A stretch of 64,000 nucleotides of DNA from Alphaproteobacteria bacterium (GTDB lineage Bacteria > Pseudomonadota > Alphaproteobacteria > UBA7887): assembly GCA_965216755.1 (NCBI GenBank), contig CBDCGL010000011.1, positions 1,600,001-1,664,000 on the forward strand. The letters run 5' to 3'. The notes beneath the pieces were generated by a model. The model was not told the DNA's origin, searched no databases, and saw only the letters and a list, made by a program, of their open reading frames with translations. Every line of letters starts with the position of its first letter. Position 1 is the first letter of the stretch. The position numbers and the translations under genes were made by a program. Below, piece after piece: positions 2,725-31,318 of this stretch.

Positions 2725-4850
2725 GTCGCGGTTCGCGGCGCCAGGAAGCGAATGGCTTTTTGGCGCAAGGATTCCAGCCGCATCTCCCAAGCCCGGCCAT
2801 TGCGCACCACATCGGCGCGATAGAAAGACGGGCACAAGGCCGCCACATCGGCAACCGCACCGCATAAACCGCAACCAACGCAGTCATTGTTCACATGCGC
2901 AACTGGATCACTGCACAGCGGATCCGGATTGGCCTTGATGGTCAGTGACGGACAACCTGAAAGCCTGATGCACGAATGATCGCCGGTGCATACTTTCTCG
3001 TCGACACCGAACCGCGTGGTGGTCACCCGCTCTCCGGCCGCGACTTGTTTCCGAATCTGGGGTCGAAGGCGCCGTTGCCGCGCCAACTGACATTCACCGT
3101 CGGCGATAATCACTTTGAGACCGCGTGTTGCTGTGGTCATCGCGTCACGCAGAGTGCGCACCATGCGCCGTACATCGTATGTACGGACCTTGCGTATCCA
3201 TTCGACGCCAACGCCCTTGAGTGCGCTTTCAATCGTCATACCCATCGGCGCGCCGGCGCGATGCTGGCGACTCGACGGCAGATACTGCCACCCTGTCGCC
3301 GAGGTATAACCGTTGTTCATGATCACCAAGACAGAGTCGTCTTTGTTAAAATGGGCGCTGGCGATTCCGGACGTCAGGCCATTGTGCCAGAAGCCGCCGT
3401 CGCCCATTATGCTTACCACCCGTTTGTCGAAGCTTGGCGCGACGCCTGTTGAACTGGCCAACCCCAGTCCATAGCCGAGCACCGTATTGCCGAGATTGAA
3501 TGGCGGCAAAGTCGATATTGTATGGCAACCAATGTCAGCGCTAATATGTGTTGGACCAAACTCTTTCTCAGAGATCTTGATGGCGCTGAACACAGGCCGT
3601 TCGGGACAGCCGGTACAAAAGCTTGGCGGCCGGCCCGGCATCGTCGCACCTAAGAGCGCGGTGGCCTTTTCCCTGTCGGCGGCCGCCCGGTCGACTTTCT
3701 CCACAGCCAGAGAGTGCGTGTCTGACGGTGCGACTTGTTCCAAGAACCTGCGCACGCCGGCGATGACGACCTCACCGGTATACTCGCCCGCCATGGGCAG
3801 AAAATTCTTGCCATGAACTTTGGTTTGCAAGTCTGCTTTGCGCAGCACCACGTGCACGGCCTGTTCCAGATAGTCGGGATTGCCCTCCTCAACCACCAAT
3901 ACCGCCCGCTTGCCAGCACAAAACGCCTGGATTTCCGTCGGCACAACCGGATAGGTGACGTTCATCACATAGAGCGGAATCTGCGTTGCGCCGAAAACGT
4001 CCGCCCAACCCAGCCGCTCCAGCGCCCTGACGACCGTGTTGTAGAGACCACCCTGCAAGATGATGCCGATATCATCGCGGGTACCGGAGAAAACCTCATT
4101 GAGTTTGTTATCGGCGATGAACCTCTCGGCCGCCGGCAACCGTGTCTCGACTTTGAGTTTTTCTTGCGCATAGGTCGCCGGCGGTAGGCATATGCGTGCA
4201 TAGTCGAAATCCGGTTGCGCCAGCATCTGCTTTCGGGAGATGGCCGGCGCTTGATTGTCCTTGCACGTAAAGCGCCCGGTGACATGGCACGCGCGGATGC
4301 GCAGTTCTAACATGACTGGCAGATTGCTGGCTTCCGACAAGGCAAAGCCTTGCTCGACCATGCGCACGATGGTCGGAAGATCCGGGCGCGGGTCCAATAG
4401 GCAAATTGACGATTTCAACGCAAAGGCGTGGCTGCGCTCCTGAATGATGCTGGCGCCCTCGCCATAGTCCTCGCCGATCACGATCATGGCCCCGCCCATG
4501 ACCCCTGCCGAAGCCAAATTGGACAAAGCGTCCGACGCCACATTGGTGCCAACCACCGATTTCCACGTCACAGCACCGCGCATCGGATAGTTGATCGACG
4601 CGCCGAGCATCGCCGCAGCCGCCGCCTCGCTGGTTGGCGTTTCAAGATGCACACCCAGCTCATCGAGCAAATGAGCGGCATCGACCATCACGTCCAGCAA
4701 ATGAGATACCGGCGACCCCTGATAACCACCGATGTAACTCACGCCCGACTGCAAAAGCGCCTTGGTGACAGCCAGGATCCCTTCGCCCTCGAAAATCTCC
4801 CCGTCGCCACGCCGCAGGGTCTCGACTTCACGCTTAAATGATCGTTCCAT
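2721..4850 (-). CDS. iorA: Indolepyruvate ferredoxin oxidoreductase alpha subunit
   Basis: GYQGSP, RPPSFCTGCP, DIGC, TPP-binding GDGGFWH..NN, and C-terminal ferredoxin cysteines (CTGDHSC..GCP; CVGCGLC). Confidence 0.92.
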   Translation of the reverse strand: MERSFKREVETLRRGDGEIFEGEGILAVTKALLQSGVSYIGGYQGSPVSHLLDVMVDAAHLLDELGVHLETPTSEAAAAAMLGASINYPMRGAVTWKSVVGTNVASDALSNLASAGVMGGAMIVIGEDYGEGASIIQERSHAFALKSSICLLDPRPDLPTIVRMVEQGFALSEASNLPVMLELRIRACHVTGRFTCKDNQAPAISRKQMLAQPDFDYARICLPPATYAQEKLKVETRLPAAERFIADNKLNEVFSGTRDDIGIILQGGLYNTVVRALERLGWADVFGATQIPLYVMNVTYPVVPTEIQAFCAGKRAVLVVEEGNPDYLEQAVHVVLRKADLQTKVHGKNFLPMAGEYTGEVVIAGVRRFLEQVAPSDTHSLAVEKVDRAAADREKATALLGATMPGRPPSFCTGCPERPVFSAIKISEKEFGPTHISADIGCHTISTLPPFNLGNTVLGYGLGLASSTGVAPSFDKRVVSIMGDGGFWHNGLTSGIASAHFNKDDSVLVIMNNGYTSATGWQYLPSSRQHRAGAPMGMTIESALKGVGVEWIRKVRTYDVRRMVRTLRDAMTTATRGLKVIIADGECQLARQRRLRPQIRKQVAAGERVTTTRFGVDEKVCTGDHSCIRLSGCPSLTIKANPDPLCSDPVAHVNNDCVGCGLCGAVADVAALCPSFYRADVVRNGRAWEMRLESLRQKAIRFLAPRTAT

Positions 4851-4949
4851 GGGCGAATTCCCTCCGTCAGGCTAGTATAGCCGATCTCATCACGCCGTCG
4901 CGGGGTCGCCGCGCGCCGGCACTGACCCACACCGCGAGGAGAGAACCCC

Positions 4950-5648
4950 GTGATCGACCTTTATTACTGGCCGACGCCGAATGGCTGGAAAATCACCGTC
5001 ATGCTGGAAGAAGTCGGGCTACCCTACAACGTCATTCCGGTCGATATATCAAAGGGCGATCAGTTCAATCCGGAATTCCTGAAGATCAGCCCCAACAACA
5101 AGATGCCCGCCATCGTCGATCCTGAAGGGCCAGACGGTAAACCGATCTCCATATTCGAGTCCGGCGCGATCATGATTTATCTCGGCGACAAGACCGGCAA
5201 ATTGCTGCCACAGGAACCGCGCGCCCGTTACAAGGTTTTCGAGTGGCTGATGTTCCAAATGGGCACAGTGGGCCCGATGCTCGGCCAAACCCATCATTTC
5301 CGCACCTACGCGCCTGAAAAAATCGAATATGCAATCAACCGCTACACGAATGAAGCGAGCCGGATCTACAACGTGATCGACAATCGGTTGGCAGAAAGTG
5401 AGTGGCTCGCCGACGACTATTCGATTGCGGATATTGCCACGTGGTGCTGGCTGCTCGGCGAACGCCAAGGCCAGAATTTCGACGACTACCCCAATCTCAG
5501 TCGCTGGCGGAACGTGATGAAGGGGCGGCCGGCCGTACGCAAGGGCCGCGACGTCATGCGCGACGCGACCAAACCAGTTTCTGAACTGACCAAAGACAAG
5601 GAACGCTTCGAAATCCTTTTCGGCAGTAAACAATATGCAAAAAGGTGA
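4950..5648 (+). CDS. Glutathione S-transferase, YfcG/YghU-like (GSH-dependent disulfide oxidoreductase)
   Basis: TPNGWK, SPNNKMPAIVD, FESGAI and YSIADIA motifs; GAGGAG RBS. Confidence 0.9.
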   Translation: MIDLYYWPTPNGWKITVMLEEVGLPYNVIPVDISKGDQFNPEFLKISPNNKMPAIVDPEGPDGKPISIFESGAIMIYLGDKTGKLLPQEPRARYKVFEWLMFQMGTVGPMLGQTHHFRTYAPEKIEYAINRYTNEASRIYNVIDNRLAESEWLADDYSIADIATWCWLLGERQGQNFDDYPNLSRWRNVMKGRPAVRKGRDVMRDATKPVSELTKDKERFEILFGSKQYAKR

Positions 5649-5784
5649 AAAACTCGGGTGATGTTGGCGCATTGTCGTATCCGGACTGGTTCATCTCGTG
5701 ACACAGCATTAGAGCGCGCCAGAAGGCTAAAGGCGGCGACCGACCGCGGGTTTCGCAACAAGACGATCGAGAAGGAATATATTC

Positions 5785-6687
5785 ATGGCAAGCCATACGA
5801 CAGGGGACGGCGGCATCCCGCCTCGAGACGCGAACGAACGCGGCTTAACGCGGGTCATGACTCTTGGCGGTGCCTACGGCACACGCAACTACACGGTCAA
5901 AGGACTGCGCGACCAAAAGGGCAAAAAGCTTCTGGTTGAGACCCTACCGTTTTCGCCGGAGGAGGCCGCGGCCGCCGAGGAGGCCGGAATCGACACCATG
6001 AAAGCGCGGTTCGACCCGGCCGCGCCGGACTCAGCAGCCGAGATTCGGCGCGCCGCGCCCAACACCTTTATGGCTTTTTCGGTACCCTTGGTGGCGGCTG
6101 CCACGGCCGATGAAGCGGTGCGCATTGGCTACCAAGCGATGGCAATCGGCGCGGATGCTGTTATGACACAGTGGAGCCCCCGCTTTATTGCCGCGGCCGC
6201 CGAGGCCGGCATTCCGGTGCAGGGTCACGCGGGTTTGGTACCGCGCAAGAGCACGTGGACCGGAGGTCTGCGTGCGGTCGGCAAGAACATTGACGAAGCC
6301 ATGTGGGTCTACCAGCAGATTAAAACGTTTGAGTCAGCCGGCGCCTACGCAGTCGAGGTCGAAGTTATCCCCGAGGCGCTGCTGGTTGAAATCAGCAAAC
6401 GCACGACGCTGTTGACCTCGTCGATTGGCGGCGGCAGCGGCGGCGACATTCAATTCCTGTTTGCCGACGATATTCTCGGCAACAACGCCCCGCCGTACCC
6501 GCGCCACTCTAAGCAATATCGTCACCTGTACAAACTCAAAGAACAGATGCAGGCCGAACGAATCAGTGCTTTCAAGGAGTTCGTTGCTGACGTTCGGCAG
6601 GGCGCTTTCCCGGCGGCCGAACATGTGATCAAGGCGCCAGACGGCCTGGTTGGCGCATTTGTTGATGCGGTTGACGGCGCAGTATAG
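5785..6687 (+). CDS. Divergent ketopantoate hydroxymethyltransferase (PanB)-like protein
   Basis: AEEAGID, GIPVQGHAGLVP, AGAYAVEVE, SIGGG..D.Q, F..DVRQGAFP follow the PanB pattern, but the LVGDS and DMPF motifs are missing. Confidence 0.75.
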   Translation: MASHTTGDGGIPPRDANERGLTRVMTLGGAYGTRNYTVKGLRDQKGKKLLVETLPFSPEEAAAAEEAGIDTMKARFDPAAPDSAAEIRRAAPNTFMAFSVPLVAAATADEAVRIGYQAMAIGADAVMTQWSPRFIAAAAEAGIPVQGHAGLVPRKSTWTGGLRAVGKNIDEAMWVYQQIKTFESAGAYAVEVEVIPEALLVEISKRTTLLTSSIGGGSGGDIQFLFADDILGNNAPPYPRHSKQYRHLYKLKEQMQAERISAFKEFVADVRQGAFPAAEHVIKAPDGLVGAFVDAVDGAV

Positions 6688-6800
6688 CACTGCGGCTATG
6701 GCGCAATTTGCCGCGGTTCGTTCGCAATTTGAGTCGCTAACGCCACAATGATGGGCGACTGCGCACGGCGCGTATCGCGTAAAGTTTCAGGTGCACCCCA

Positions 6801-7085
6801 ATGGAAGACCAAAGGCACGCCACACTCGGTGTTATCAGTTTTGGCCTCGCTTTCGGCATGAGCGGTGTCATCGTCACCGTCGTGCTTGGCTTGTCGGCAT
6901 GGCTGGCGAGCTGGGGCGTCACCGTGGTGCAAGTCCTAGGTTCTCTGTTCCTGGGCTACGGTCCGAGTTTCGTCGGCATTGTTGCTGGCGCGGTGTGGGC
7001 GTTCTTTGATGGCTTTGTTCTCGGTGTCCTGATCGCCTGGTTCTATAACCGGTTTCTGCTGCGCCGACAGCGGCACGTGTCCTAG
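6801..7085 (+). CDS. Small membrane protein of the family often auto-annotated 'bacteriophage holin'
   Basis: 94 aa and hydrophobic, with a GY.PS..G...G..WAF.DG...G.LIAW.YN signature. Confidence 0.7.
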   Translation: MEDQRHATLGVISFGLAFGMSGVIVTVVLGLSAWLASWGVTVVQVLGSLFLGYGPSFVGIVAGAVWAFFDGFVLGVLIAWFYNRFLLRRQRHVS

Positions 7086-7097
7086 CGAGATCCGATC

Positions 7098-8966
7098 TCA
7101 ATTCACGGCCCGAACCACCGCAGCTTCACCCTGCGCCGGGCCCAAACATGCCTCGATCTCCGCACGGCTTAAGGTTTCCTTGGCCTCAAGTTCGGCAACG
7201 AGACGCTCCATCTCCGGGCGATGTTCGCGAATTTGGGTTGCCGCACGCTCACCCGCCTCGGCAAGCAATTTGCGCACGGCTTCGTCGACTTCATGAGCCG
7301 TGGTTTCACTAAATCGACGCGGTTGCGCGATTTCCCGTCCCAAGAACGGATGTTCCTCACTTTGGCGCAGATCGATGGGGCCAATCGTGTCAGACATGCC
7401 CCAACGCGCGACCATCGCGCGGGCCAATTGCGTCGCCTGGCGAATATCGTCGTCCGCCCCAGATGAGACGTTGCCGAGAAGCTCATCTTCCGCGGTGCGC
7501 CCGCCAAGCATCACGGCAAGTCGATCGCGCAAATAGTCCTCGGGCAACGTATGACGCTCCTCCTCCGGTAGCATATGCGTGCCGCCGAGCGCGCGCCCGC
7601 GCGGAATAATGGTCACTTTGTAGAGCGCGTCGGCCTTGGGCAGAAAATGCGCGGTGACGGTGTGCCCCGCTTCGTGCACCGCCAATCGATGCCGCTCCTC
7701 CGGCAAAATGGCGAGCGTGCGGACCGCGCCCATCATGACTTTGTCGCGCATGTCGTCAAAATGGCGCGCGGTCACCGCGTCGGCGCCATCGCGCGCGGAC
7801 GCCATCGCCGCTTCGTTGACGAGATTCTTGAGATCGGCGCCAGAAAACCCCGGTGTGCCCGCTGCGAGAAGGCCGAGATCGACGTCCTTGGCCAGTGGCA
7901 CCTCGCGCACATGGACTTTGAGAATTTCCTCGCGCGCCTTTTTGTCCGGCAGTTCCAACGTCGCATGCCGATCAAATCGGCCCGGTCGCAGCAGCGCGGG
8001 GTCGAGCACATCGGGTCGATTGGTGGCCGCCAGCACGATCACGGTCTCACGACCGGTAAATCCGTCGAGCTCGGACAATATCTGATTCAGAGTCTGCTCG
8101 CGCTCGTCGTGGCCACCGCCAAATCCCGCGCCGCGGACGCGGCCGACAGCATCCAATTCGTCGATGAAGATAATGGCCGGCGCCCGTTTCTTCGCCTCGT
8201 CGAACATTTTGCGCACCCGCGACGCACCTACGCCGACGAACATTTCGATGAACTCCGATGCCGAGATATGGAAAAATGGCACGCCGGCTTCACCAGCAAG
8301 AGCGCGAGCCAGCAACGTTTTTCCTGTGCCGGGTGGGCCGACCAGCAGCACACCACGGGGCGGTTCTGCCCCGAGCTTGCGATAACGTTCTGGCGTGCGC
8401 AAAAAATCGACGAGCTCGGAGACCTCCTTTTTTGCATTGTCCTGGCCGGCAACATCGGCAAACGTGACCTTTTTTTGGCCCTTTTCCTCTTTCTTCGCGG
8501 AACCGGACAGAAAGTCGCCAAGATCGCGGCCGCCAAGTCGCCCGACCATGTTCTTTTGCATCCGGCTCCAAAACCAGAAATAGAGACCCAAGAAAAAGAG
8601 CCATGGCAAAAGGGCGGAAAACCATCCAAGGCCCCCATCTGCACCTGGTAAGTTCTCGATCTCGACGCCGAATTCCTCCAGATGCGGCAGCAATGTCGGG
8701 TCACCCACCTCTGGCAGCCTGGTCCGGATCTGCCGGACCGCGGTTGCCGTGTCTCCAACCACCTGTGGTTGGGTCAGCTCTGCCGTCGCCTCATTGCCTC
8801 GCAGTGCGACCTTCGCGACTTTGCCTGTTGAGACCAACGACTTGAACTGGGAATAGGTGACAGCCGCGCCCGACTCAATCTCTGCCTGTTGAGCCCCGTA
8901 GAACAGGGTGAGCAACACGACAGCGCCGACTAGGGCGGCCAATAGCCAGGACGGCGTTCGATTCAT
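7098..8966 (-). CDS. ftsH: ATP-dependent zinc metalloprotease FtsH
   Basis: Two TM segments, Walker A GPPGTGKT, Walker B IFIDELD, SRH motif [24 protein letters not shown] zinc motif; AAGGA RBS before the ATG at 8966. Confidence 0.97.
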
Positions 8967-26583: not shown

Positions 26584-27081
26584 CGCTCCCTCCCCTTCGC
26601 GAACAAGCTGCGGTGAAACTGTCGCAGGCCAGCGAACGCGGGTCAATCGGCCATTGCGGATCGCTGTTGCCGCTTCGGTAAGGGCACGCACGAAACATCG
26701 AGGTTCCAAGTCATCGTCCGTCGCGCGGCCAATGACGAGTATTCATTTACATCGACAATCTCTGATTGGAGCATTGGGTCTCGACGCGAGACCACAATGC
26801 GAAGTTGCGAAAATCACGGAATGATTTCAGTTACTTGCGTCCCGCAGGCGATTCTTTTTTGGTCAATATCAGGGCAGCAAAATTCGAATTAGTGGACCAG
26901 AATTATCGGGCATCGTGCAAACAAATAAACGGTTTCATTGTGCACCGCACCGTGGTTTTCCCAGGTATCTTTTCAGCGATCGCATGACAAGTCAGTGGCG
27001 CTGGCCGGCTATTGGCATGTACGATGTCGGCGTTTAGCCCGTTTTCATAGTCGTATCCTGCTGAGTGGAACCGAAGTTACC

Positions 27082-27765
27082 ATGGCGAAAGACACCGGCA
27101 CTAACGCAATACCCCAAACCAGGTTCGAAAGGCGCGCCGGCGCACCTGTGGACGCGGACACATGCGACGGCTGCACCTGCAAAAGGCGGCGCGCGAATTG
27201 GGGCCGCCGGATCTTGCTGGGTGGTGTCGCAGCGTGGGCCGCGTCACGCATTCTGCCTGGTGTGACCACGACGCGTGCTGCCACCGATGATCCGACAAAG
27301 ATGCGCGCCCAACCCGGTGATCAATTGATATTCAAGAGCGGCGCGCGCAAAGGGGAAGCTATCTCGGTTTCTGACGTGGAATGTGGGGCAAGGCCCTTGG
27401 TCGCGTATCCATACGATCCCGTTAACGATATCGCGCGCAAGGGTTCGCGTTTTAATCAGGTCCTGGTGCTCCGCTTGCCGGATACGGGATATACGGACGA
27501 AGTGCGCAGTCGCGCGGCTGAGGGTGTCATCGCCTATTCCGCGATTTGTACGCACGAGAATTGTCCGGTTACGGGCTGGCACCCTGACGAACAGCTTTTT
27601 ATCTGTCCGTGCCACGAAACACACTACGACCCGAAGGACGGGGCACGGGTCGTGTCGGGACCGGCGAAACGGGCCTTGCCGGCCTTACCGCTGACGGTCA
27701 AAGACGGCGTGCTTGTCGCCGCTGAAGGCCTGACTGGTAGGGTGGGAAAACGCAAGCGCACCTAA
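27082..27765 (+). CDS. Rieske [2Fe-2S] protein with a Tat-like leader
   Basis: YSAICTHENC and CPCHETHYD boxes, GPA.R.LP, and RRILLGG followed by a hydrophobic stretch. Confidence 0.9.
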   Translation: MAKDTGTNAIPQTRFERRAGAPVDADTCDGCTCKRRRANWGRRILLGGVAAWAASRILPGVTTTRAATDDPTKMRAQPGDQLIFKSGARKGEAISVSDVECGARPLVAYPYDPVNDIARKGSRFNQVLVLRLPDTGYTDEVRSRAAEGVIAYSAICTHENCPVTGWHPDEQLFICPCHETHYDPKDGARVVSGPAKRALPALPLTVKDGVLVAAEGLTGRVGKRKRT

Positions 27766-27836
27766 AGCCGCCCGCGATTCACATCGGACCTGCGACGGTC
27801 CTGTCCCGTAATAAACCACCTCTAGGGAGGAAAAAT

Positions 27837-29567
27837 ATGGCTGCAAGAAGGAGCATTGGGGCATTCGGCGGGGCGTTGGTCGTCTCGGCCATGCTTATGC
27901 CCGCGGTCGCCTCGGCGGACGGCTATTCGGCCGTTACCGACGACAGGCTCGTCAACCCTGAGCCCGAGAATTGGCTCATGTATCGCGGTAATTACGCCGG
28001 CTGGGGCTACAGCCCTCTGGAAGAAATCAATACCGAGAATGTTAAAGATCTTAAGCCGGCTTGGGCATTCTCGACCGATGTCAACGAAGGCCACCAATCG
28101 CCGCCGGTGGTCAATGACGGCGTCATGTTCATCACCACGCCGGAGAACCAGGTGATCGCGCTGGACGCGGAGAACGGTGAGCTTCTGTGGCGCTACCAGC
28201 ATGAGATCCCGGAAGAGCTGTTCCAGCTCCATCCGACCAATCGTGGCGTCGCGCTTTACGGCAACAACGTCTACATCACGACCACGGATTGCATGGTGGT
28301 CGCTCTCAACGCGGAGACCGGAGAGGAACTCTGGAAGACCGCCACCGACGATTGGGAGACAGGCTACTACATGACCATGGCGCCGCTGATTGCGGAAGGC
28401 AAAATCATGGTCGGCACGTCGGGTGGCGAATACGGCATCCGCGGCCATATCACGGCGATAAATGCCGAGACTGGCGCGATAGAATGGGTCCGCCACACGA
28501 TCCCAGGTCCGGGTGAATCCGGCCATGAAACTTGGGAAAACGATGCTTGGAAGACGGGCGGCGGCTCGGTCTGGCTGACCGGAAACTACGACCCCGATAC
28601 CGGCGTCTCCTACTGGGGCACCGGCAATGCCGCGCCCTGGACCGGCGACTTGCACCCGGGTGACAACCTCTACACCACCTCGGCGCTCGCAATCCGGGTT
28701 GCGGACGGCGAGATTGTCGGCCACCACCAGTATCACTGGAACGACTCGTGGGATTGGGACGAGGTTTCCACCCCGTTGCTGGTTCCGATTGAACGCGACG
28801 GCCAGCAGATCAAAGGTCTCGCCCATGCGGGGCGCAACGGCTATCTGTGGCTGCTCGATCGCGGCACGGGCGCGGACATCGGTTTTGTCGACGCGCATAA
28901 ATATGTGCGCCAAGACGCCTTCACAAGCATCGACCCGGAAACAGGGCGGCCGAGTTACGACGAGTCCAAGAAGCCTGTGGTCGGCGAACTCATCAAGTTC
29001 TGCCCATCGTTGTGGGGTGGCAAGGACTGGCCACCGGAAGCGTACAACCCGAAGAACGGCCTGTTCTATATTCCGGCCAACGACAACCTGTGCGGTTCGT
29101 TGATCGGCGAGGACGTGCCCTTGGTGCCTGGTGAGCTGTGGCTCGGCGTGCCGATCCCGGACATCAAGATGTACTACGTCGAGGGTTCGGACCATATCGG
29201 CGAAGTCCAGGCCTGGAATCTGAACACCGGCGAAGAGGTGTGGACGCAGAACTTCGAGTCCTTCAACTGGGGCCCACTGCTCACCACCGGTGGCAACCTG
29301 GTCTTCGCGGGCGGCACCAGGGATCGTCTTTTCCGGGCCTTCCACGGCGAGACCGGCGAGATCCTCTGGCAGTTCAAGACCAACTCCGGAATTACCGCGG
29401 TTCCTTCGTCCTACTCGGTCAACGGCAAGCAGTATATTGCCGTGCAAGCCGGCTGGGGCGTCGACGCGGTGCGCATGGAAAATTCGCTCGCCGCGGAGCG
29501 AGGTTGGGACGGCGACACGCGGCCGACGCCGATCGGTGGCGTACTCTGGGTGTTCGCGCTCAACTAG
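27837..29567 (+). CDS. PQQ-dependent dehydrogenase, methanol/ethanol family
   Basis: Signal peptide, W-docking repeats, GGEYGIRG, WGTGN, WDWD, RNGY, CPSLWGGKDW; GGGAGG RBS. Confidence 0.95.
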   Translation: MAARRSIGAFGGALVVSAMLMPAVASADGYSAVTDDRLVNPEPENWLMYRGNYAGWGYSPLEEINTENVKDLKPAWAFSTDVNEGHQSPPVVNDGVMFITTPENQVIALDAENGELLWRYQHEIPEELFQLHPTNRGVALYGNNVYITTTDCMVVALNAETGEELWKTATDDWETGYYMTMAPLIAEGKIMVGTSGGEYGIRGHITAINAETGAIEWVRHTIPGPGESGHETWENDAWKTGGGSVWLTGNYDPDTGVSYWGTGNAAPWTGDLHPGDNLYTTSALAIRVADGEIVGHHQYHWNDSWDWDEVSTPLLVPIERDGQQIKGLAHAGRNGYLWLLDRGTGADIGFVDAHKYVRQDAFTSIDPETGRPSYDESKKPVVGELIKFCPSLWGGKDWPPEAYNPKNGLFYIPANDNLCGSLIGEDVPLVPGELWLGVPIPDIKMYYVEGSDHIGEVQAWNLNTGEEVWTQNFESFNWGPLLTTGGNLVFAGGTRDRLFRAFHGETGEILWQFKTNSGITAVPSSYSVNGKQYIAVQAGWGVDAVRMENSLAAERGWDGDTRPTPIGGVLWVFALN

Positions 29568-29608
29568 GATCGATAAGAGAGCCGAACTTTAGAAGTTCGA
29601 CAAAGTTG

Positions 29609-29645
29609 GGGCCGGTCGTCGCATAGACGGCCGGCCTCTTCCTTT
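29609..29645 (+). terminator. Probable intrinsic terminator between convergent genes
   Basis: Stem GGGCCGGTCGTC / GACGGCCGGCCT with a 5-nt loop, followed by CTTCCTTT. Confidence 0.65.
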
Positions 29646-29660: not shown

Positions 29661-29975
29661 TTATCGAGACGGCAATTCGATTGTCAGCATCAAGGAGCTC
29701 ATGCTCTTGCCATGTAGATCTTGCGACAGATTGGCGGTGACACCGCCGTCCAAGGCATGCTCGATCACGAAATTAAACGCTTGGATCTTGGGCAACTTGT
29801 AGCGGCGTACGGGGCCCTTAGCGACGCCTCGGAACGCCTCCATGACCTGCTCTTCGGTCAGGTATTCGGCCAAATAATCATAATCTTCGGGCCGATACGC
29901 GATCACGGAAACATTCACGATGTGCCCTTTGTCGCCGGCACGGGCATGGGCCAGATCATACAGACGAACCGTCAT
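29661..29975 (-). CDS. AtuA-related small protein (stand-alone AtuA C-terminal-like domain)
   Basis: LAHARAGDKG..N, V.RY.LP...A.NFV...L.GG and D.HGK motifs; ATGA-coupled to the upstream gene. Confidence 0.85.
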   Translation of the reverse strand: MTVRLYDLAHARAGDKGHIVNVSVIAYRPEDYDYLAEYLTEEQVMEAFRGVAKGPVRRYKLPKIQAFNFVIEHALDGGVTANLSQDLHGKSMSSLMLTIELPSR

Positions 29976-31318
29976 GATGGCGCCACCATTGAAAAATGAG
30001 GCGTCACCTGGTCGCGCGGCAAGAGCACCGATTGCACGGAATAGATCTCCCGCACCTGGCGATCGGCTCCAGCGCCGCCAGCGGGTCCATTGGTCAACAG
30101 CGTATCCAAATCTTGTCCAACCGCTTCCGCTGCTCTTCGGTCGGCCGTCCGCCCGGCAACGCGCAAGCGCACTTCGTAGGGCTCGGGTCTGGCGCCATCG
30201 GCCCCATGCAAGCTTTCCAGTCCAATCAGCTCGACCCGTAGGTCATCATAGTGAAAGCCGCGCATTGCAAGGCGCTCGCGCACGACGTCGCCCGCCAGGC
30301 GCGCGCGGGCAACCGCATTGATGCCGCCATAAGAGATCTGCCCCTCGCCGATATAGCCGTCAAAGTAGCCGACGCTGACCTTATACGTATCGGTGCGCGG
30401 CGTGGCACGGGCCCCGGTCACGGTCACCCGGTCGCCGCTCCATTCACGAAATGCGATGTCGGTCATATCAAGCACGCAATCCGGCGTGATGTAGCGCGAC
30501 GGATCATGGACTTCATACAAAAGCTGCTCGGCACAGGTCATACGATCGATCCGGCCGCCAGACTCCGGTGGTTTGGAAATCGACACCGCACCATATAAGC
30601 CGATATCCGCGCGCGGAAATCCGAGCCGGGCCAGATCAGGCACATCTTTGACGCCCGGATCCGCGAAGTAGCCGCCGGTCACTTGGCCGGCGCATTCCAG
30701 CAAGTGGCCCGCCGCGGTTCCTTGTGCCAGCAATGAATAGTCATCATAAGACCATCCAAGATGGTGAATCATTGGTGCGAGAAACAATGACGGATCGGCG
30801 ACCCGGCCGGTAATTACCACGTCGGCGCCCACCGCGAGAGCCGGAACTATTGCATCTGCCCCCAGATAGGCATTCGCCGAAGCCATACGCGGCAGAATTG
30901 ATTCGAGTGGCGCGCCGGTCTCCATCAAAACCATTTCGGGCCGACCAGCGATGACCTCGCGGACGTCGTCGCCGAGCACGGCCGCGACCTTGATATTGGC
31001 TACACCTTCTTCTTCCGCAATCGCGCCGACGTGCCGTGCCGCGCCCTCAGGATTTGCCGCGCCCATGTTGCTCAGAATGACGACGTTTCGTTCGTGTGCC
31101 GCTTTCAAAACCGCGCGGATACGCTCGGCCAAAAACGGATTGTAGCCGGCATCCGGATCATGATGACGCGCAAGATTCTCCCGGGCTATCGTGCGCTCCG
31201 CCAAACATTCGAAGCCCAGATATTGGATTTCTCCGCGCTCGACCAGCTCAACCGCCGGGTCCCAACGATCTCCGGCGTAACCGGCACCAGCGCCGATCCT
31301 GACATACTGAGGTGGCAT
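29972..31318 (-). CDS. Acyclic terpene utilisation AtuA family (DUF1446) protein
   Basis: RIGAGAGYAGDR, ECLAERT, SANAYLG, ITGRVAD, GHLLECAGQVTGG and EQLLYE motifs. Confidence 0.92.
   Translation of the reverse strand: MPPQYVRIGAGAGYAGDRWDPAVELVERGEIQYLGFECLAERTIARENLARHHDPDAGYNPFLAERIRAVLKAAHERNVVILSNMGAANPEGAARHVGAIAEEEGVANIKVAAVLGDDVREVIAGRPEMVLMETGAPLESILPRMASANAYLGADAIVPALAVGADVVITGRVADPSLFLAPMIHHLGWSYDDYSLLAQGTAAGHLLECAGQVTGGYFADPGVKDVPDLARLGFPRADIGLYGAVSISKPPESGGRIDRMTCAEQLLYEVHDPSRYITPDCVLDMTDIAFREWSGDRVTVTGARATPRTDTYKVSVGYFDGYIGEGQISYGGINAVARARLAGDVVRERLAMRGFHYDDLRVELIGLESLHGADGARPEPYEVRLRVAGRTADRRAAEAVGQDLDTLLTNGPAGGAGADRQVREIYSVQSVLLPRDQVTPHFSMVAPS

Follow-up and report, generated by a model that had tools for sequence, protein, structure and literature searches.

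In a stretch of 64,000 nucleotides from the genome of an Alphaproteobacteria bacterium of the UBA7887 lineage (assembly GCA_965216755.1, contig CBDCGL010000011.1, positions 1,600,001 to 1,664,000; this whole stretch is called the window here), the gene of a Rieske [2Fe-2S] protein was found directly upstream of the gene of a pyrroloquinoline quinone (PQQ) dehydrogenase. The Rieske gene (P0001, 27082..27765, plus strand, 227 amino acids) was identified from Pfam and structure matches, and the dehydrogenase gene (P0002, 27837..29567, plus strand, 576 amino acids) was assigned by the model TIGR03075 and by a tree to the methanol/ethanol dehydrogenase family and, within it, to the 'type 6a' clade. 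The pairing of the two genes is far from chance. As it was found to be kept across many phyla, the electrons that the studied relatives give to cytochrome c probably go to the Rieske protein here, and from the sequences a role as the dedicated and routine electron acceptor of the enzyme, replacing cytochrome c, is regarded as rather probable. Some functional coupling of the Rieske protein and the dehydrogenase is regarded as highly probable.

To our knowledge, every PQQ alcohol or methanol dehydrogenase that has been studied passes its electrons to haem, either in a soluble cytochrome c or in a fused or associated cytochrome. The ring formed by two vicinal cysteines (Cys-Cys) is thought to be part of the electron route to haem. 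A large, phylum-spanning clade without this ring and with a Rieske gene alongside suggests that electrons can leave enzymes of this textbook family by another outlet, and the clade is not a marginal one, with members in the deep ocean, in soil Methylomirabilota/Rokubacteria, in Gemmatimonadota and in plant-associated Methylobacterium. What is new here is a putative redox partner for a known enzyme family; the missing of the right acceptor could be one reason why this family stayed uncharacterised.

The Rieske protein and the PQQ dehydrogenase

The two genes were found to be separated by an intergenic spacer of 71 bp (27766..27836, plus strand) containing a ribosome-binding site GGGAGG at 27825-27830, 6 nt 5′ of the ATG, and the terminator scan gave no terminator-like site between them. 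The unit is closed by an intrinsic-terminator-like hairpin (29608..29638, plus strand) with 13 pairs, of which 10 are G-C, and a T-rich tail behind it; with 4 terminator-like sites against a shuffle mean of 3.3, the region shows no overall excess of them. The same two-gene unit, with its 71-bp gap and terminator, had been described in an initial annotation made from this DNA alone, and a two-gene operon is the best explanation of the arrangement. The pair was found to form a plus-strand island amid minus-strand operons. Among the sequencing runs searched, four from one study contained this stretch as contigs, and no RNA data set with it was listed.

The Rieske protein was found to match Pfam family PF00355 (E 1.2e-8), and its closest solved relative was the Rieske protein of Thermus thermophilus (1nyk/3fou, E 1e-34), aligned over residues 71-223, which make up the whole soluble domain. 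The start at 27082 is in line with the starts of 60-64% identical homologues in alignment A2, which consists of 30 Rieske partners. The N-terminal part was found to contain the twin-arginine (Tat) motif GRRILLGG at residues 41-48 (27202..27225, plus strand), with R42 and R43 invariant in A2, and an RR-x-hydrophobic-hydrophobic motif was present in 63 of the 69 Rieske partners from the related genome loci described below. Rieske box I contained CTHENC at residues 156-161 (27547..27564, plus strand), with the ligands Cys156 and His158 and the disulfide cysteine Cys161, followed by the presence of box II, CPCHETHY, at residues 175-182 (27604..27627, plus strand), with the ligands Cys175 and His178 and the disulfide cysteine Cys177. 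The residues C156, H158, C161, C175, C177 and H178 were all invariant in A2, and both ligand boxes together with both disulfide cysteines were present in 69/69 partners from the genome loci. The Tat-like leader and the two boxes with extra cysteines (CTHENC and CPCH) that the initial annotation had pointed out are thus all present. By its ligand boxes, disulfide cysteines, Tat motif and likeness to the Thermus protein, the P0001 family is classed as a respiratory-type Rieske family.

The short hydrophobic stretch after the twin arginines and its A-x-A-like end, which are read as a cleaved Tat signal, suggest that P0001 is released from its signal and is soluble in the periplasm. By the title of entry 3fou, a quinol:cytochrome c reductase contains the Thermus protein as a subunit, whereas P0001 adjoins a dehydrogenase and is predicted to be soluble. 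P0001 was found to score below the cut-offs of all NCBIfam models for Rieske subunits of bc1, b6f and arsenite oxidase, among them those for QcrA (90 bits, cut-off 275), AioB (49 bits, 95.65), PetC (41 bits, 250) and the proteobacterial Rieske protein (32 bits, 97.4), and no cytochrome b or AioA gene was found to adjoin the pair in the window; neither by its scores nor by its neighbours is P0001 therefore a Rieske subunit of a bc complex or of arsenite oxidase. Where bc1 has its hydrogen-bond donors, 68/69 partners contained Ser and 66/69 Phe, while the P0001 of the window contains the Thr and Tyr of box II there. In work on bc1, the disulfide and the hydrogen bond from Ser accompany positive potentials. 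By analogy, a positive potential would suit an acceptor for PQQH2.

A cysteine-rich patch (CxC, CC or CxxC) was also observed in the n-region of the Tat signal before the twin arginines (about 27154-27225, residues 25-48). In P0001 the patch contained three cysteines and is not a lipobox. At least two cysteines within 25 residues before the RR were found in 44/107 Rieske homologues and one cysteine in 27 more, and the patch recurs in distant Rieske subclades.

The quinoprotein P0002 was found to match TIGR03075 with 555.5 bits (cut-off 480.05) over residues 31-541 and the Pfam PQQ family PF01011 with E 8.8e-74, and its best solved relative was PedH (6zcv, E 1.5e-108) in an end-to-end alignment. 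A signal peptide of 27 residues is predicted from the translation (27837..27917, plus strand), with an inferred cleavage site after A-S-A and before D-G, and it is read as Sec-type. The site at which relatives carry the vicinal Cys-Cys ring contained QLHPTNRG (28224..28247, plus strand), where the alignment sets Q-L-gap-H of P0002 opposite P-C-C-D of PedH, so that no vicinal Cys-Cys is present; all 120 best homologues were found to contain Q/x-x-H-P-T-N-R-G at this site, and none of them CC. The metal ligand Glu198 lies in GGEYG (28422..28436, plus strand), which aligns with GGEFG of PedH, followed by the presence of the ligand Asn264 in GTGN (28617..28628, plus strand); E198 and N264 were invariant in alignment A1, which consists of 24 clade members. 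The motif WDWDEV (28749..28766, plus strand) aligns with W-D-F-D of PedH and contained the catalytic Asp306, conserved to at least 90% in A1, and the lanthanide-type Asp308, invariant in A1. In the alignment of the query with its 120 best homologues, 104/121 sequences contained NDSWDWDEV. Metal ligands, D-x-D and loss of the Cys-Cys had all been read from the letters in the initial annotation, and the alignment with PedH agrees. The R-N-G and G-G-K motifs of the quinoprotein were conserved alongside the metal ligands, and pqqC and pqqE were found above their cut-offs in this genome. The enzyme accordingly looks active as far as its sequence goes, and PQQ could be made in this organism.

The quinohaemoprotein chains 1kv9 and 1yiq, which we take to be calcium enzymes, were found to contain W-D-F/Y-T, with Thr at the position of the second Asp. 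An additional Asp motif has been used as an indicator of lanthanide binding, as stated in PMC11996626. By this additional Asp, P0002 is classed as lanthanide-type, and it would then use a lanthanide as its metal.

Among known enzymes, P0002 resembles PedH/ExaF in its propeller family, in the Glu, Asn and Asp ligands, in the extra Asp two residues past the catalytic Asp and in its predicted periplasmic location, whereas PedH (6zcv, 6zcw) contains the vicinal Cys-Cys that the enzyme of the window lacks. The partner of PedH/ExaF is a c-type cytochrome, c550 (PedF/ExaB), and the conserved neighbour of the window enzyme is instead a Rieske protein; in the tree described below, the window enzyme also falls in a clade apart from the Cys-Cys paralogues of its own genome. 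XoxF belongs to the same family, contains D-x-D, keeps the Cys-Cys and is encoded with the cytochrome c XoxG and the periplasmic binding protein XoxJ. A gene table for comparison is given in PMC5023235. The solved XoxF chains match P0002 at E 1e-85 to 1e-70; however, neither XoxG nor XoxJ genes adjoin the window enzyme, and no cytochrome c or XoxJ-type protein was found among the flanking genes scanned with Pfam, as had been noted initially.

Conservation of the gene pair

In a forward test, alignment A1 retrieved 80 genome loci, of which 77 were testable (three had less than 100 nt of upstream DNA). A P0001-like Rieske gene was found directly upstream and on the same strand in 69 of the 80 loci (69/77 testable). 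The carriers belong to Methylomirabilota/Rokubacteria, Alpha-, Beta- and Gammaproteobacteria, Gemmatimonadota, Acidobacteriota, Myxococcota and Spirochaetota, that is, to at least six phyla. Alignment A2, used for a test in the reverse direction, retrieved 80 metagenome loci, of which 72 were testable (eight had less than 200 nt of downstream DNA), and the start of a dehydrogenase was found at most 600 nt downstream of the Rieske gene in 64 of the 80 (64/72 testable). Kin share gene order, and counts over related loci such as these overstate independence. The initial annotation had named a pairing that is not conserved as an outcome that would speak against it; the pairing was found to be conserved in both directions. 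The Rieske-linked metagenome enzymes contained no Cys-Cys in 55/55 sequences that cover the site and W-D-W-D-E in 42/42 that cover the metal site. A side observation concerns Rieske relatives without a dehydrogenase: at L099 (5306-6407), L091 and L144 such genes were found head to head with a gene of a small c-type cytochrome (C-x-x-C-H), a hint that cytochromes c are the partners of the wider Rieske family.

Of 151 genomes sampled from across the class, 3 were found to encode a P0001-like Rieske protein, this genome among them. In the other two, the gene directly downstream of the Rieske gene encodes a 60%-identical enzyme, and none of their 8 further paralogues has the Rieske gene as a neighbour. 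The genome of the window was found to contain 12 loci of the PQQ alcohol dehydrogenase family (contig C11) and only one P0001-like Rieske gene, the one that adjoins P0002. Ten of the 12 paralogues contained D-x-D and seven the Cys-Cys ring, a set that is large and mostly lanthanide-type for a 5-Mb genome.

Annotated plasmids from bacteria in culture gave further pairs. Those of Alteromonas macleodii Te101 (pTE101a) and Paracoccus yeei (pYEE2) were found to contain the dehydrogenase gene followed by the Rieske gene, with aldA nearby, and this inverted order means that the pairing survives rearrangement. The plasmid of Roseomonas marmotae contained the Rieske gene, the enzyme gene and then an IorAB-type molybdenum (Mo) enzyme, and that of Azoarcus sp. 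KH32C the Rieske gene, the enzyme gene and then aldA. Plasmid pDAETH-2 of Deinococcus aetherius (L174, 3407-5701) was found to contain a more distant Rieske gene followed by the gene of an enzyme with Cys-Cys and D-Y-D; genes of a binding protein and an ATP-binding cassette (ABC) transporter were observed downstream of this enzyme.

A tree was made of 98 rows, which are members of the clade, enzymes from the plasmids, the 12 paralogues of this genome and further paralogues that lay within the retrieved loci; the initial annotation had proposed a phylogeny against the XoxF, ExaF and PedH clades as a check. With rows chosen by likeness to the query, a small outgroup, quick mode and a midpoint root, all Rieske-linked enzymes fell into one clade of 84 rows with a support of 98 in the Shimodaira-Hasegawa-like approximate likelihood-ratio test (SH-aLRT), and a Rieske partner was present in 0/14 outgroup rows. 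The earliest branch inside this clade was the Deinococcus enzyme, in which the Cys-Cys is still present. The remaining 83 rows were Cys-less (SH-aLRT 99); 3 of them, the Methylobacterium aquaticum 144-kb locus, Alteromonas and Paracoccus, formed a D-x-A group, and the other 80, with the window enzyme among them, a D-x-D group. The label of Rieske linkage required 8 changes on the tree against a mean of 23.1 after shuffling, with 0/500 shuffles as low, and in its Rieske-less members the partner was lost secondarily, a few times. Over 64 pairs, the pairwise distances between the enzymes and those between the Rieske proteins were correlated with r = 0.84, with 0/999 permutations as high; this correlation indicates inheritance as a unit and says nothing on binding.

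The D-x-A sister group (L171, Alteromonas, 4944-7475; L173, Paracoccus, 3890-6367; L177, M. aquaticum, 144 kb) was found to be Cys-less, to contain W-D-W-A with Ala at the lanthanide position, to be 47-51% identical to the query and to be paired with a Rieske gene as well. By the usual rule, these W-D-W-A enzymes would be calcium-type. The pairing thus follows the clade and not the lanthanide signature, which refines the initial description of a Rieske protein paired with a lanthanide-type enzyme. Lanthanide-type and calcium-type enzymes that share a type of partner are useful for asking what the metal changes.

The enzyme family has a name in the literature. According to PMC7356819, Adh4 (Maq22A_1p32165) and Adh6 (Maq22A_1p30675) of M. 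aquaticum 22A are PQQ-dependent alcohol dehydrogenases (PQQ-ADH) of type 6a in the Keltjens classification, a family that 'has not been characterized', and adh4 and adh6 mutants exist; the initial description of the quinoprotein as uncharacterised agrees with this. PMC5784242 reports no clear expression pattern for 1p32165 and, for 1p30675, repression by La3+ and an Ala at the lanthanide position. On plasmid pMaq22A_1p, relatives of P0002 were found at 449 kb (D-x-D, 59% identical) and at 144 kb (D-x-A, 51% identical), both with a Rieske gene upstream and both within the Rieske-linked clade. From the plasmid positions, and from the reported Ala of 1p30675, which fits the D-x-A locus, we infer that the 449-kb locus (L176) is Adh4 and the 144-kb locus (L177) Adh6. 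The window enzyme groups with L176 and L177 in the clade with SH-aLRT 99 and is a member of type 6a, with no difference in kind from the M. aquaticum enzymes. The type has a presence in nature, ADH type 6a being listed in PMC11996626 among the types that dominate PQQ dehydrogenase transcripts in deep water. The word Rieske does not occur in PMC7356819 or PMC5784242, and the words Rieske, cytochrome and electron are all missing from PMC11996626. The full-text literature searched, a scope that leaves out the type-defining review (doi 10.1007/s00253-014-5766-8) and supplements, contained no description of a Rieske partner of a PQQ dehydrogenase. The enzyme family thus has a name but no characterisation, and its Rieske partner appears to be undescribed in that literature. 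The idea of such a partner is testable in cultured, genetically tractable carriers.

Proposed electron transfer and alternative explanations

In the proposed mechanism, the enzyme would be exported by the signal peptide read as Sec-type and would be loaded in the periplasm with PQQ and a lanthanide, and the Rieske protein would be exported folded through the Tat pathway. The export signals found on both proteins agree with the periplasmic location that had been suggested initially, and wherever sequence analysis could put the initial interpretation to the test, it was supported. The dehydrogenase would oxidise an alcohol, most likely to the aldehyde, and the two electrons of PQQH2 would be passed singly to the [2Fe-2S] cluster of the Rieske protein encoded alongside. 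This Rieske protein would stand in for the cytochrome c (cL, c550 or XoxG) of the studied type I enzymes. The reduced Rieske protein would be re-oxidised by a component of the respiratory chain encoded elsewhere. The arsenite oxidase AioAB is periplasmic and has a small, Tat-exported disulfide Rieske partner, which relays single electrons to cytochrome c or azurin. It serves as the working analogy: the matches of AioB chains to P0001 have E values of 1e-10 to 1e-6, although the catalytic partner is a PQQ propeller in the window pair and a molybdoenzyme in AioAB.

A stronger form of this mechanism, in which the Rieske protein, instead of moving freely as a carrier, is a fixed small subunit of a 'quino-iron-sulfur' dehydrogenase, a new class of quinoprotein built like arsenite oxidase, is put forward tentatively and is more doubtful than probable. 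The [2Fe-2S] cluster would in that case dock over the PQQ funnel, in the space of the lost Cys-Cys ring, and PQQ alcohol dehydrogenases would thereby have a third kind of wiring, next to soluble cytochrome c and fused haem domains. This arrangement would have a single origin and would have spread by transfer across phyla, in lanthanide and calcium versions, and the cysteine-rich patch before the Tat motif could contribute to a dedicated step of assembly or proofreading. A complex of the enzyme (residues 28-576) and the Rieske protein (residues 68-227), predicted with separate alignments, gave scores of 0.30 and 0.28 against a mark of 0.32, which weighs neither way on whether the two would form a stable complex.

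Several findings weigh against the Rieske protein as the routine acceptor. The Rieske gene was absent in 8/77 testable genome loci despite more than 1 kb of upstream DNA, and the dehydrogenase gene was absent downstream in 8/72 testable Rieske-seeded loci although room was present; some of the dehydrogenase-free Rieske relatives adjoin a small cytochrome c. In the tree, a Rieske-less subclade of 5 rows (four Gemmatimonadota and one labelled Proteobacteria, SH-aLRT 99), also Cys-less, was found to contain A-F/Y-H-x-T-N-R-G instead of Q-L-H-P-T-N-R-G. Further Rieske-less rows nested in the clade are L061, L008 and a second enzyme copy of this genome; L059, outside the tree rows, is Rieske-less as well and contained transposase-like open reading frames upstream. 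The second copy (C11:2453575-2455308, minus strand, outside the window) has no Rieske gene nearby, so the enzyme is not always encoded with its supposed acceptor. It was found to contain a different signal peptide and to have different neighbours, and it shares 99.6% DNA identity over 1653 bp with window positions 27909-29560, which cover the mature part only; such sharp limits of the identity within the coding sequence suggest that the mature domain was recently duplicated or gene-converted.

Further points on the same side concern the residues. A Phe is found in 66/69 partners where bc1 has Tyr, and the assignment of lanthanide use depends on one signature residue. The loss of the Cys-Cys is neither necessary nor sufficient for the pairing: the Deinococcus enzyme has a Rieske gene upstream with its ring intact, so that ring loss is not required, and Cys-less members without a Rieske gene exist. 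A strict coupling of Cys-Cys loss to Rieske pairing was for this reason rejected. No fusion of a Rieske protein with a dehydrogenase was found among 5741 longer candidates at E <= 1e-10, which is weak evidence in the same direction.

It is unlikely that the Rieske protein is functionally linked to the enzyme without being its routine acceptor, serving another step of the pathway while the electrons go to a cytochrome c or a cupredoxin encoded elsewhere. Such a step might be a reductive activation or maturation of the quinoprotein, or the electron flow of a neighbouring oxidoreductase, and the IorAB-type Mo enzymes that are frequent neighbours would also need an acceptor. The Rieske-less second copy, the mostly Gemmatimonadota subclade and the enzyme-free Rieske relatives, some of them beside a cytochrome c, fit this explanation as well. 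It has to account, however, for a Rieske gene that is the only constant neighbour among variable downstream genes, for a pair that stays intact under inverted gene order and for the co-varying distances of the two proteins (r = 0.84), and we know of no role of a Rieske protein in the maturation of a quinoprotein. Less probable again, and regarded as very unlikely, is an adjacency that is inherited baggage, with a merely co-transcribed Rieske gene and an enzyme that uses a soluble cytochrome c. The pair is known here from genes, and the gene order shared by kin inflates the counts, both of which suit baggage; yet the linkage was found in both directions (69/77 and 64/72), in at least six phyla, with the genes in either order and with D-x-D as well as D-x-A enzymes that are 47-51% identical to the query, and both families were found to be conserved and intact, with invariant cluster ligands.

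The last alternative is a propeller that is no working PQQ/lanthanide dehydrogenase, being cofactor-less or differently cofactored, with the Rieske cluster as the real redox centre. The missing Cys-Cys ring by PQQ and a match of 362 bits to the acido-empty-quinoprotein model TIGR04528 could be read in this way. The match, however, is far below the cut-off of 650, and the cut-off of TIGR03075 was passed; the Glu, Asn, both Asp and the Arg and Lys motifs were (near-)invariant across the clade. With these ligands conserved, with pqqC and pqqE for PQQ synthesis in the genome and with a TIGR04528 score below the cut-off, an empty propeller is very unlikely. Electron transfer from PQQH2 to the Rieske protein remains the explanation that we favour.

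Substrate class and neighbouring genes

In the related genome loci, a cytochrome c domain was found in 1/115 same-strand downstream open reading frames, after a sulfite-oxidase-like Mo enzyme. The commonest theme downstream was aldehyde oxidation: Fer2_2 and/or MoCoBD domains of an IorAB-type subunit were found downstream of the enzyme in 8 loci (L006, L022, L024, L030, L031, L032, L037 and L040), an aldehyde dehydrogenase was found downstream of it in L054 and L058, and aldA or an IorAB-type enzyme was annotated in 4 plasmid records. Other downstream genes encode an enoyl-CoA hydratase with a thiolase-like protein, an amidohydrolase with ThuA, a short-chain dehydrogenase/reductase (SDR) with an amidase, and an acyl-CoA dehydrogenase. 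The downstream genes thus vary widely, which leaves the Rieske protein as the only constant partner. Conversion of an alcohol to an aldehyde is the most likely chemistry of the enzyme, and the substrate probably differs between lineages.

In the window, one flank of the pair was found by Pfam to contain a transporter of the tripartite ATP-independent periplasmic (TRAP) type, with DctP, DctQ and DctM, and an AMP-binding (acyl-CoA-synthetase-like) enzyme. The other flank contained AtuA and an AtuA ferredoxin-like protein (29661-31318, minus strand), which converge on the terminator; AtuA is the acyclic terpene utilisation family. A weak sigma-54-like -24/-12 site, TGGCCG-N5-TGGCA, was found at 27002-27017 (8/11 of the consensus), about 65 nt before the start of the Rieske gene. 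A sigma-54 promoter was rejected as a feature of the family, as the best scores on the sense strand were not above those on the antisense strand in 67 related loci, of which two from Neptuniibacter and one from Aromatoleum were the only ones with good sites upstream of the pair.

Two secreted proteins were considered as general third members of the unit, and both were rejected. A protein of about 170 amino acids with a signal peptide and without a Pfam family was found directly after the enzyme (L053, 4583-5101, and for example L027, L031, L036, L040, L044-L051 and L056); it is limited to about 21 loci of one proteobacterial subclade, and neither this genome nor any of the 80 metagenome loci contained it. 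A different secreted protein of about 150 amino acids, likewise of no known family, was found after the Rieske gene in Alteromonas and Paracoccus only.

A plasmid of Burkholderia multivorans (L175, 3917-7346) was observed to contain a dehydrogenase gene with Cys-Cys and D-Y-D, followed by the genes of a substrate-binding protein and of a protein with the annotation high-potential iron-sulfur protein (HiPIP), with the gene of a TonB-dependent receptor upstream of the dehydrogenase. The HiPIP at this locus may be another iron-sulfur partner for the PQQ dehydrogenase family.

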